A stretch of 64,000 nt of DNA from Escherichia coli (GTDB lineage Bacteria; Pseudomonadota; Gammaproteobacteria; Enterobacterales; Enterobacteriaceae). The first letter of the stretch is position 1. Every line of letters starts with the position of its first letter. The stretch lies in assembly GCF_003991155.1 (NCBI RefSeq), contig NZ_CP031293.1; one strand, written 5' to 3'. A program made the position numbers. Shown one piece after another: positions 51,001 through 54,000 of the stretch.

Positions 51001-54000
51001 TTTATATTTAGAGGATCGCCAATTTTTTTGCATTCAATGAGAATTTGAACCTCGCTATTTTTTAAGATTGCATAGTCAATCTTTTCACCTTTCTTCGTTC
51101 CAATGTCGCATACAAACTCTGGGATAACTTCGGTAGGATCAAAGACATCATAACCTAACACATTGTTAATGAACGGCATTACGAAAGCATTTTTGGTAGC
51201 TTCCTCCGTTTCAATGACTCCGGCTTGTTGTTTTATTTTTGCGGATAATGAATTCAGCTTATCTATAAACTCCATAGACATTATAACTCCTTTTATATAT
51301 ATTTAATAAAAATGCGTTTTATAAAAATATAGAAAATATTTATATATTAACGCTTTATCATTGGTCATAGTTAATGTATAACACACAAAAAATAATGTTT
51401 GCACATTGTAAATACAATGGTGAAACAAACTTGATATTTATCAAGAAAATAAAACAATGTCTTTTATTGGTTGTTTTAAATGTTCAATGAATACGAGTTG
51501 GAACTATAGCAAGACTAGCTTCGATATCGCATGGATAATCTAATACAGATTTTTTAACACCTAATACTATGAGTTATATGTAAATTGCGAGCATCCTCGC
51601 ATCTTTTCAACAAGTTACTGCACACCGTTATTCTTCTTCCGAGCGGCATTCCTGAGTCAACTTTATCCCCCTGACGGCCCATATAAATCGCGCTATCGTG
51701 ATTGTTATCACTAATTGTGTGTATCGTGTGTATAATCATGGAAGGGCAGGGATGTGAAAAGTGCAGACGTGATCGCCATCCTGAAGCAGCATGGCTGGGA
51801 ACATATTCGAACCCGTGGCAGTCATCATCAGTTCCGCCACCCTGTTCATCCGGGTCTGGTGACGGTTCCGCACCCTAAAAAAGATATTAAGCCCGGTACG
51901 CTGGCGCAAATTGGGCGTCAGGCTGGTTTAACATTTTAAAATTTCAGGAGGCAATATGTTTTATCCCGCCTATATCCACAGTGATCCTGACGGCAGCGCC
52001 AGCGGTTTTTTCCCTGATGTTCCAGGCTGTTATTTTGCTGGTGATACGCTGGACAACGCTTTCCAGGATGCGCGAAGTGCACTGGTCGCGCACTTCGAAA
52101 CCTTATGCGAGATGGATGAAGAGTTGCCGCTTCCAGGCTCTGTGGAAACACATCTGGTCCAGCGTGCGCAGGACTTTATTGGCGGGCAATGGTTGCTGGT
52201 GGATATCAATATGAATCAGTTCGAAGGTCGGGCTGAACGTATCAATATTACGATGCCGAAAAGGTTACTGAACAAGATTGATACCTACGTGCGCAATAAC
52301 CCAGACTACGCCAACAGAAGTGCGTTTCTGGCAGAAGCTGCCCGGCGTGTATTGCCGGGCGTTTAATCTCGCGTTTCGATGGTTAGCGGGCAACTGCACC
52401 GACTTGTAGGCCTGATAAGACGTGTTAAGCGTCGCATCAGGCAATGTGCACCCTACGGTGGATGCGGCGCGAGCGCCTTATCCAACCTCCGGATGGCAAT
52501 GCTTTTCCTCATTCACCCAGATCCGCATTTCGCCTTCACCCCGGTTAGCCCAGCTAAACCACGGGATAAACGTCAGAGTTTGCGGCTGGCGTTTGGCTGG
52601 CGCACTGTCGTAATGCCACAGCGGTTGCTGCTCTGGATTGCTCTGTTCATACCGGTAACCCGGTGCCTGGATTAAGATCTTATGGCTGAACAATCCATTA
52701 CCTTCAAATGTCGTAAATGGCGCATCGGCGGGCAGCCACAGGTTATGCAGCGACTCGCTGTTGTCGGCCTGTTCCAGGCAATAAACCAGCGGGCCGCGCT
52801 GAATCGCCACTTTTCCGGCGACGTGACGCACCAGCGGGTTACCGTAAACGCGACGTACTGGCATTGGCAACGTCAGATTCAGCGTGTCGCCCTCCTGCCA
52901 TTCGCGGGTAATGTGCAAATACCCTTTACGAATATCCTGCTCGACCTCTTCCCCATTCAATATGATCTGCGGCTGTGTGCACCAGTCCGGCAGACGTAAA
53001 GCCAGCGTATGACGCACCGGCTGGGGCGATTCAACCGCAATTGTCACCTGTTCCTGCCACGGATAGTTTCCGCTAACCCGCAGACGCAGCGTGCCATTTT
53101 CTACCGGCACTTCCATGCTGTTTCCTGCGTATATGTTGATATACAACGCATCTTCACGCGGCGTGTAGAGATAATGACCAATCGAGGTTAGCACGCGGGC
53201 GATATTTGGCGGACAACAAGCGCAACCAAACCAACGCTGGCGGATCGGCTTAACGTGATCGTAGATATGGTTGAATTTCAGCGATTTTGGATGTACTTCC
53301 AGCGGATTCACATAGAAGAAATGTTTGCCATCCAGTGCCATGCCGCCGAGCACAGTGTTGTACAGCGCGCGCTCCATCACATCGGCATATTGACTGTCGC
53401 CTTCCATTTCCAGCATTCGTCGGGCAAACATCATCAGGCCGATGGAGGCACAGCTTTCGGCGTATACCGTGTCATTCGGCAGATCGTAATCGCTGCTGAA
53501 CGCTTCACCGCTGCTCTGTGAGCCAATGCCGCCGGTAATATATAACTGACGCTGGGCCATATTGTTCCACAGCCGCAGGCAGTCCTGACGCTTGCTTTCA
53601 TCGTGACTTAAACGCGCGAGATGCGCGACGCCGGTCATCAGGTAGACAAAACGTACCGCGTGACCAATGGCGGTTTGCTGCTGTGCGATGGGCAAATGTG
53701 CCTGGCTGTAGGCTTTGTCTTTCACCATCCACGCCGGGCCGTAGGTGTGCCAGTGCGAGGTCTGCCCGCGCTTTTCATATTCCTGGTCGTAATAGTGCGG
53801 TTGCGCACCACGCTGTTCGACAAAATAGTTCGTCAGCGCCAGGTAGCGCGGCTCTTCGGTCACTTCATACAGGCGCATTAGTGCCAGTTCAATTTCCGGG
53901 TGACCAGGATAACCGTGTAACTTACTTTCATCTGGACCAAATACGCTGTCGATATGATCGGTCAGACGGCAAACTACTTCCAGCAAGCGCCGTTTTCCCG

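Follow-up and report, generated by a model that had tools for sequence, protein, structure and literature searches.

The hicAB pair carried on the plus strand of a 64,000-nt stretch of Escherichia coli DNA (contig NZ_CP031293.1, hereafter the window) is, judged from its sequence, a type II toxin-antitoxin operon of the chromosome with both genes intact, a classical hicAB with a HicB of the RHH type (class 4, Gerdes 2024). The family is already known and annotated, and the locus represents a second E. coli hicAB beside the near-universal K-12-type one. Taken as a whole, the explanation that we consider likely is an RHH-type toxin-antitoxin operon with a tandem-repeat HicB operator and a CRP site, ancestral at aldB-sgbE. 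Work on HicAB in E. coli uses the HTH-type system of K-12, and about 9% of the strains carry this second, RHH-type system. In our literature search for the locus or its accessions the HicA accession WP_000833473.1 was encountered once, as a BLAST query, and no experimental characterisation was found. The practical value of the locus is modest and it leaves the general understanding of HicAB systems unchanged; the comparative loci nevertheless supply a testable regulatory model with three parts: an operator built of tandem repeats, a site for CRP and a weak start codon on the toxin gene.

The toxin gene hicA (51754-51939) starts with GTG and encodes 61 amino acids, and hicB (51956-52366) starts with ATG and encodes an antitoxin of 136 amino acids. 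Both frames were read from the sequence, are intact in the window and agree with PGAP, which makes the same two ORF calls in strain 2016C-3878 (100% identical) and already names both products as HicA/HicB family members (WP_000833473.1 for HicA). The genes lie on the same strand with hicA directly 5′ of hicB, an order common to approximately 45 related loci, and are separated by 16 nt (51940-51955) rather than by the 17 bp of the original prediction. The assignment of the pair to HicA and HicB made there was borne out by Pfam scores far beyond the gathering cut-offs: HicA matches HicA_toxin (PF07927) with 82.7 bits (cut-off 27, E = 1.9e-23), its residues 4-59 spanning positions 2-58 of the 58 in the profile, and HicB matches HicB_lk_antitox (PF15919) with 123.6 bits (cut-off 27, E = 6.6e-36). 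The NCBIfam profile search gave zero matches for HicA, HicB or the neighbouring nuclease, and the sole match of the Rfam search was a REP/naRNA4 element downstream. A G+C-rich stem-loop on the plus strand at the 3′ end of hicB (52339-52361), picked up by a consensus scan, is terminator-like with a weak T tract.

HicA contains the GSHH motif within RTRGSHHQF, and His24 of this motif aligns with the position mutated as H24A in B. pseudomallei HicA (4C26). By analogy, HicA would be a small, ribosome-independent mRNA interferase with His24 as the catalytic residue. His24 is kept in most of the 43 HicA orthologues; since several of them carry an inactivated hicA (H24R, H24P, a frameshift, truncations), the system is dispensable in some lineages. 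HicB is built of an N-terminal HicA-binding domain and a C-terminal RHH (approximately residues 93-133). The C-terminal RHH tail that had been proposed for HicB is well founded, as residues 89-136, searched on their own, hit the RHH parts of HicB3 (7.6e-7) and BpsHicB (6.7e-5), and in an AF2 model of HicB (pLDDT 87) a strand region (93-101) leads into two helices (102-114 and 121-132); the scores of generic Pfam RHH profiles are weak (RHH_8, E = 0.074). Foldseek searches with this model gave 4P7D and 6G26 as the best matches, and its N-terminal domain, a partial RNase H fold, superposes on 4P78_A and 6G1C at 1.8-2.5 Å rmsd. By analogy with these relatives, the partial RNase-H-like domain would bind HicA and thereby block the toxin, and the RHH domain would dimerise and tetramerise and repress the operon's own promoter. 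An alignment of 17 HicB sequences shows no variation at the RHH beta-strand residues R95, I96, N97 and T99, which fits a DNA specificity common to these HicBs.

The translation signals of the two genes are asymmetric. Of 36 related loci, 33 start hicA with GTG, TTG or CTG, and the hicB start is ATG in 35 of 35; a Shine-Dalgarno sequence AGGAGG, read from the sequence on the plus strand, is present for hicB inside the intergenic gap (51946-51951), and an AGGAG-like motif precedes the hicB ATG in most related loci. The conserved non-ATG start of hicA, set against AGGAGG and ATG on hicB, is predicted to keep toxin output below antitoxin output.

The claim that the pair is distinct from the K-12 hicAB (b4532/b1438; PDB 6HPB) was upheld. 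The two systems have the gene order and overall logic in common and their HicB N-terminal domains are homologous, but the BLASTP similarity of the HicB proteins (32% identity) covers residues 1-66 only, and that of the HicA proteins is confined to short segments and not significant (E = 0.011). K-12 HicB ends in an HTH (class 3), whereas the protein described here ends in an RHH (class 4) and has no Xre-like HTH; in the Foldseek comparison the HicB model and 6HPB_B align over 88 columns only. The K-12 locus lies at 1.51 Mb and the present one at aldB-sgbE.

Among solved structures the best match for both proteins is the B. pseudomallei HicAB system (4C26, 6G26, 6G1N, 6G1C), with E = 1e-16 for HicA (4C26, 6G26) and, over the full length at about 35% identity, E = 4e-25 for HicB (6G1N). 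The systems are alike in having hicA upstream of hicB, a HicB with a C-terminal RHH and His24 at the aligned position; they differ in host and locus, and regulation of the present operon is predicted. Y. pestis HicB3 (4P78, 4P7D) is likewise an RHH-type HicB, heads the Foldseek list and matches over its full length (4P78, E = 5e-21), whereas Y. pestis HicA3 is only weakly similar to HicA (E = 1e-4) and the hicA3-hicB3 gap of 130-174 bp contrasts with the 16 nt found here.

The region upstream of hicA that includes the promoter (51583-51753, plus strand) was delimited by alignment to an E. coli locus that has no nuclease cassette (L004): the homology begins at 51583, the identity is 94%, and this segment is co-inherited with hicAB. 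The perfect GTGAT-N4-ATCAC palindrome attributed to the promoter does exist, as GTGAT-TGTT-ATCAC (51698-51711); a perfect -10 hexamer TATAAT (51731-51736, plus strand, read from the sequence) follows 20 bp downstream. Its interpretation as the operator through which HicB represses its own synthesis draws on this location and on the palindromic sites to which the already characterised RHH antitoxins bind in the promoters of their own genes (PMC10865869; PMC11594946), but we now regard it as quite improbable. Of 504 E. coli hicAB promoters just 76 have the perfect palindrome exactly as it stands in the window, whereas the commonest allele (320 of 504) reads ATCGC with two extra bases. Other genera, Enterobacter, Lelliottia and Yokenella among them, have kept no more of it than the left half, (T/C)GTGAT, and in Serratia, Photorhabdus, Morganella, Proteus, Providencia and Xenorhabdus even this half is absent despite the still invariant RHH strand of HicB. 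The core GTGA-N6-TCAC is moreover exactly the CRP core consensus, identical to the CRP sites of mtlA. In the 64 kb of the window the pattern GTGATNNNNATCAC has four copies where 0.07 are expected; apart from the hicAB copy they are the CRP sites of the mtlA promoter, with the spacing of 44/73/44 bp published for these experimentally defined sites (PMC13421365), and the excess is thus explained by a known CRP motif with nothing specific to hicAB. A repeat finder with seeds of at least 6 bases overlooks a palindrome with such 5-bp arms. Because the palindrome is a minority allele, coincides with the CRP consensus and is not the element conserved across genera, its reading as an operator is unsupported.

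The palindrome looks instead like part of a CRP activator site, cGTGA-TTGTTA-TCACt (51697-51712). A sigma-70 promoter scan found no -35 hexamer and reported nothing upstream of hicA; since a -35 element is lacking, we read this failure as a sign of activator dependence and not of promoter absence. Counted from the inferred transcription start, the centre of the putative site falls at -38.5 in the window, at -40.5 in the allele that prevails in E. coli and at -41.5 in Enterobacter. Against this reading, the distance to the -10 box in the window allele is 2 bp short of the canonical -41.5, and beyond E. coli the right half of the site has not been kept. A cAMP-CRP complex bound at this class II position could stand in for the missing -35 element. 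A CRP-type site upstream is also a feature of K-12 hicAB, whose upstream promoter has a Sxy-dependent CRP-S site (PMC11869752); the site described here is predicted.

The HicB operator is more likely to be a different element, the tandem direct repeat TGTGTAT-CG-TGTGTAT (51718-51733, plus strand), which has a 9-bp period and overlaps the -10 box. Among 42 regions upstream of hicA, taken from genera as far apart as Escherichia and Xenorhabdus, 36 have the motif TGTGTAT-NN-TGTGTAT with at most one mismatch, always on the plus strand and 16-43 nt 5′ of the hicA start, and none of 1548 control windows reached the same match. In related loci the second repeat closes with a conserved -10 box of the form TATAAT or TATCAT, and because the two overlap, part of the conservation of this repeat is plain promoter conservation. 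Seven loci have an inverted second copy of the repeat 35-43 bp upstream. From the candidate operator HicB would repress the hicA promoter, which would thus be both CRP-activated and HicB-repressed, and for studies of DNA binding by HicB the tandem repeat rather than the palindrome becomes the corrected target.

The location of the candidate operator has parallels in both characterised RHH-type systems. Overlap with the -10 box is described for BS2, the main operator of HicB3 in Y. pestis, and for the B. pseudomallei HicB site, which overlaps a CRP-S motif as well (PMC11594946). The half-sites are also similar: GGTAT of HicB3 resembles GTGTAT, and the HicB3-type operators TGGGTATGGTACCCA and TAGGTATGATACCCA, taken from a hicA3B3 locus of 92% identity (L067), have a G-GTAT half-site in common with the TGTGTAT repeat. 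In the Morganella, Proteus, Providencia and Erwinia relatives two operators flank the -35 element in the manner of BS1/BS2, whereas the E. coli locus has a single proximal tandem repeat and the CRP-like site where the distal operator of Y. pestis would be. Against the candidate stands its architecture, since the repeats are direct and the characterised operators of RHH HicBs are palindromes (BS1 and BS2 of 15 bp each in Y. pestis, a single published one in B. pseudomallei), and a tetramer whose two RHH units lie at opposite ends would not usually go with a period of 9 bp. In a Burkholderiales relative (L057) the same half-site occurs in the inverted arrangement, TGTGTA-AAGC-TACACA.

Of 5426 complete genomes of E. 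coli, 505 (approximately 9%) have the pair, always on the chromosome and always at aldB-sgbE, while the K-12-type hicAB is present in 5350 of the same genomes. The same aldB-sgbE synteny was observed in Enterobacter, Lelliottia, Yokenella and Trabulsiella, which argues for hicAB being ancestral at this site, and a scar of approximately 100 bp corresponding to the 3′ end of hicB persists in K-12 and about 3400 other genomes. The segment is thus strain-variable, as had been claimed, and hicAB is the ancestral occupant of aldB-sgbE in Enterobacteriaceae, lost from approximately 90% of E. coli. A recent arrival of hicAB in a variable segment was rejected, because the synteny extends across genera and K-12 still has the scar. 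Carriage on a mobile element was rejected too: no relative of more than 60% identity resides on a true plasmid or phage, and the two relatives labelled as 'plasmid' (98-99% identity) belong to records that, at about 4.9 Mb, are as long as a chromosome. The scar means that the laboratory strain has lost its RHH-type hicAB, which is relevant to the use of K-12 as a 'clean' background.

Such extensive loss, together with the inactivating changes in several hicA orthologues and the failure of both proteins to match any PADLOC-DB v2 family at E ≤ 0.01, could mean that the pair is a selfish or decaying remnant with no current host function, kept by addiction or by chance. We consider this unlikely. 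Besides the intactness of both frames, the identical HicA (WP_000833473.1) is found in strains with differing HicBs (WP_000499742.1, WP_000499744.1), and conservation of the promoter elements and of the unequal start codons spans a bacterial order. The pair is under purifying selection, with dN/dS of 0.05-0.14 against other genera at saturated synonymous sites.

The position of hicAB next to an orphan nuclease had also been noted, and this adjacency stood. Every E. coli genome with the nuclease (188-191 genomes) has it beside hicAB, in a contiguous block in 189, and a 76-77% identical nuclease lies directly 3′ of hicB in Enterobacter, Lelliottia and Trabulsiella. The survey of neighbours nonetheless showed that, with the aldB-sgbE site constant, the nuclease is missing from about 316 E. 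coli genomes with hicAB; conversely, the nuclease adjoins aldB in Citrobacter freundii, Superficieibacter and Salmonella, where there is neither hicAB nor a remnant of it. The side of hicAB on which the nuclease lies varies between genera, and the nuclease cassette has a G+C content of 30% compared with a host-like value of about 50% for hicAB. The link is positional, not obligatory. That hicAB and this HSDR_N nuclease, perhaps with the nearby Fic gene (47220-48515), constitute one anti-phage or segment-stabilising module is therefore very improbable in the light of these differences and of the missing PADLOC matches for HicA and HicB, even though the Fic protein itself matches the SoFic defence model of PADLOC (1e-43) and HicA genes are frequently located in defence islands (PMC10865869). 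Hardly probable, too, is the idea of hicAB as a CRP-activated, HicB-repressed abortive-infection module with an unusual direct-repeat RHH operator, situated in a small ancient defence hotspot 3′ of aldB beside the SoFic-like Fic and the solitary HSDR_N nuclease; were it true, the loss of the pair from K-12 and most E. coli would alter phage sensitivity.

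The two genes of the pair, both on the + strand, are hicA (51754-51939; GTG start, 61 aa, containing RTRGSHHQF) and hicB (51956-52366; ATG start, 136 aa). They occupy the place given in the original prediction, with a gap between them of 16 nt instead of the predicted 17 bp; AGGAGG lies in this gap at 51946-51951. The window is Escherichia coli chromosome, with 100% identity to strain 2016C-3878 over the compared stretches 51600-52400 and 50100-54600. In that strain both orfs are also called by PGAP, which names their products 'type II toxin-antitoxin system HicA family toxin' (WP_000833473.1) and 'HicB family antitoxin' (WP_000499742.1), so the pair has already been annotated automatically; a literature search found no experimental characterisation of it. 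Among related loci hicA starts with a non-ATG codon (GTG, TTG or CTG) in 33 of 36, and hicB starts with ATG in all 35, usually preceded by an AGGAG-like motif. Judged from these sequences, the start-codon asymmetry is a conserved means of holding the toxin under the antitoxin in a toxin-first operon.

HicA scored 82.7 bits against Pfam HicA_toxin (cut-off 27) and HicB 123.6 bits against HicB_lk_antitox, covered over its entire length. The top solved-structure matches were the Burkholderia pseudomallei proteins, HicA 4C26 and 6G26 (E = 1e-16) and HicB 6G1N (BpsHicB; E = 4e-25, residues 2-133), with HicB3 of Yersinia pestis (4P78, E = 5e-21) next for HicB. The alanine of the H24A mutant crystal 4C26 aligns to His24 in the GSHH motif of HicA. 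The predicted ribbon-helix-helix (RHH)-like tail of HicB was borne out, as its C-terminal 48 residues, taken alone, gave matches to the RHH segments of both HicB3 (7.6e-7) and BpsHicB (6.7e-5). An AlphaFold model of HicB built with 17 orthologues as input (mean pLDDT 87) comprises an N-terminal β-β-β-α-α-β domain, a low-confidence strand segment (93-101) and two helices (102-114 and 121-132), which is the picture expected for an RHH monomer since the ribbon forms only in the dimer. Foldseek aligned the model with HicB3 and BpsHicB at full length and with K-12 HicB over 88 N-terminal columns only. In BLASTP searches HicB shared 32% identity with K-12 HicB over residues 1-66 only and HicA had no significant match to K-12 HicA (E = 0.011), in agreement with the claim that the pair is distinct from the K-12 locus. 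Class 4 comprises hicAB with RHH HicB and class 3 the HTH type of K-12 (Gerdes 2024, PMC10865869). The profile, structure and K-12 comparisons thus place the pair in classical hicAB of class 4, whereas K-12 hicAB is class 3; the pair is real and intact, and its class is a known one.

The pair was found in 505 of 5426 complete E. coli genomes (coverage of at least 80%), always chromosomal and in one copy each. K-12-type hicAB occurs in 5350 of these genomes, which makes the window pair an accessory second system. Another ~3384 E. coli genomes, including K-12, match window 52283-52394 only, i.e. the final 84 nt of hicB and 28 nt 3′ of it. In K-12 AB1157 the remnant (L002:7001-7101, ~100 bp, with a 12-bp deletion) lies between aldB and yiaW, and its translation corresponds to HicB residues 110-136 with 74% identity; in all these genomes it is a deletion scar. 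The K-12 scar partly overlaps an opposite-strand 47-aa 'hypothetical protein' (WP_001066080.1). The gene order aldB-(yiaU-yiaT)-hicA-hicB-GH127-MFS-AraC-sgbE recurs in Enterobacter, Lelliottia, Yokenella, Trabulsiella, Pluralibacter, Pseudocitrobacter and Phytobacter, relative to which hicAB has dN of 0.15-0.23, saturated synonymous sites and, where computable, dN/dS of 0.05-0.14. Recent arrival of hicAB was rejected on the synteny across genera and the K-12 scar; together with the low dN/dS these indicate that the pair is ancestral at the locus and under purifying selection, and that most E. coli have lost it. Relatives with more than 60% identity were not located on any real plasmid or phage; those at 40-58% identity occur on plasmids, Haemophilus phages (HP1, HP2) and Pseudomonas phages.

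In E. coli the aldB-sgbE interval is mosaic, with at least five arrangements (O157:H7, AVS0973, K-12 and L004, a strain without the nuclease cassette, among them) that combine yiaWVUT, hicAB, nuclease and GH127-MFS-AraC; in K-12, GH127-MFS has been lost and only a fragment of the AraC gene remains. A REP/BIME element (52409-52487; Rfam naRNA4, RF02564, 63.4 bits, - strand, above the gathering score) separates hicB from the GH127 gene. In several orthologous loci hicA is damaged beside hicB (L007, L016, L008, L032, L033, L056, L017, L048, L049, L052 and L063, the last with hicB itself only partly kept), by changes of His24 to Arg (L007) or Pro (Enterobacter chuandaensis, L016), a frameshift (Escherichia sp. 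E1V33, L008) or truncations (Photorhabdus, Xenorhabdus, Erwinia and an uncultured Enterobacter MAG, L017). Yersinia enterocolitica carries a lone HicB3-type antitoxin gene (L065:1501-1908, 89% identical to Y. pestis HicB3) 3′ of a peptidase M28 gene, with no hicA called there or detected by tblastn.

The promoter contains, as predicted, an exact GTGAT-TGTT-ATCAC palindrome (51698-51711), and a perfect -10 box, TATAAT (51731-51736). The palindrome had been proposed as the HicB operator, an assignment which is probably wrong on the comparison of 100-140 nt 5′ of hicA in ~45 related loci. The window allele was matched exactly in 76 of 504 E. coli promoters, 320 of the 504 have ATCGC (an imperfect palindrome) and two additional TG bases, other Enterobacteriaceae keep GCGCTA-NN-GTGAT only, and the palindrome was not found in the compared hicA promoters outside Enterobacteriaceae. 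The palindromic sequence is itself the CRP consensus core (consensus TGTGA-N6-TCACA). Three further copies in the window (27663, 27707 and 27824) are all in the mtlA promoter and, with a fourth site there, make four strong CRP sites 5′ of mtlA (27663-27837), which served as an internal control for the motif; their centres are spaced by 44, 73 and 44 bp, equal to the spacings published for mtl CRP sites 2 to 5 (PMC13421365). With transcription assumed to start 7 nt past TATAAT, the centre of the CRP-like site falls at -38.5 for the window allele; for the major E. coli allele it is -40.5 and for Enterobacter -41.5. A promoter scan 5′ of hicA found no -35 hexamer, and the position fits class II CRP promoter geometry on this inferred start. 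Among E. coli alleles the run of TG that separates the site from the -10 box varies in length (GTGTGTAT at window 51712-51724 vs GTGTGTGTAT at L004:3270-3300), a change linked to the ATCAC vs ATCGC right half-site that shifts the site-to--10 spacing by 2 bp.

A better candidate for the HicB operator may be the tandem repeat TGTGTAT-NN-TGTGTAT (51718-51733, + strand), whose 3′ end forms the -10 box. It occurs in 36 of 42 loci with at most one mismatch over the 14 specified bases, always on the + strand and 16-43 nt from the hicA start, and none of 1548 control windows reached the same match. In seven loci (Morganella, Proteus, Providencia, Erwinia) a second, inverted copy occurs 35-43 bp farther 5′ and flanks the -35 element. 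The HicB RHH strand residues R95, I96, N97 and T99 are invariant in 17/17 aligned sequences. There are precedents for such a location: both BS2, the main operator in Y. pestis, and the HicB site of B. pseudomallei overlap the -10 box, the latter also overlapping a CRP-S motif (PMC11594946). In a HicB3-type locus (L067, 92% identical) the operators read TGGGTATGGTACCCA and TAGGTATGATACCCA, with a half-site similar to GTGTAT, and a Burkholderiales relative (L057) has TGTGTA-AAGC-TACACA. From the conserved repeat, the operator precedents and the CRP match we propose that the repeat is a putative operator for HicB and that the palindrome would serve as a CRP site.

The HSDR_N protein gene (50202-51281, - strand, 359 aa) lies in a 30%-GC cassette (~50163-51582), compared with ~50% GC for hicAB. 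Its product has an N-terminal restriction-endonuclease-like HSDR_N domain followed by ~230 residues without a family match; PADLOC matched it just weakly, to a model for a type IIG enzyme, and no PADLOC model matched HicA or HicB. The nuclease is present in 188-191 E. coli genomes, every time at the aldB-sgbE locus, and a 76-77% identical gene stands directly 3′ of hicB in Enterobacter, Lelliottia and Trabulsiella. Several genera have it beside aldB, with or without hicAB, and where hicAB is present the nuclease can stand to either side. The predicted link between the two holds as adjacency but not as an obligate tie: ~316 E. coli genomes have hicAB without the nuclease, and in Citrobacter freundii, Superficieibacter and Salmonella the nuclease adjoins aldB with neither hicAB nor a remnant. 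They share a hotspot without forming an obligate pair. Between yiaY and aldB is inserted a gene, absent from K-12, for a 431-aa Fic protein with a C-terminal HTH (47220-48515, + strand), which matched the SoFic defence model of PADLOC (1.2e-43) and scored 40 bits against the NCBIfam SoFic equivalog, far under the cut-off of 550.
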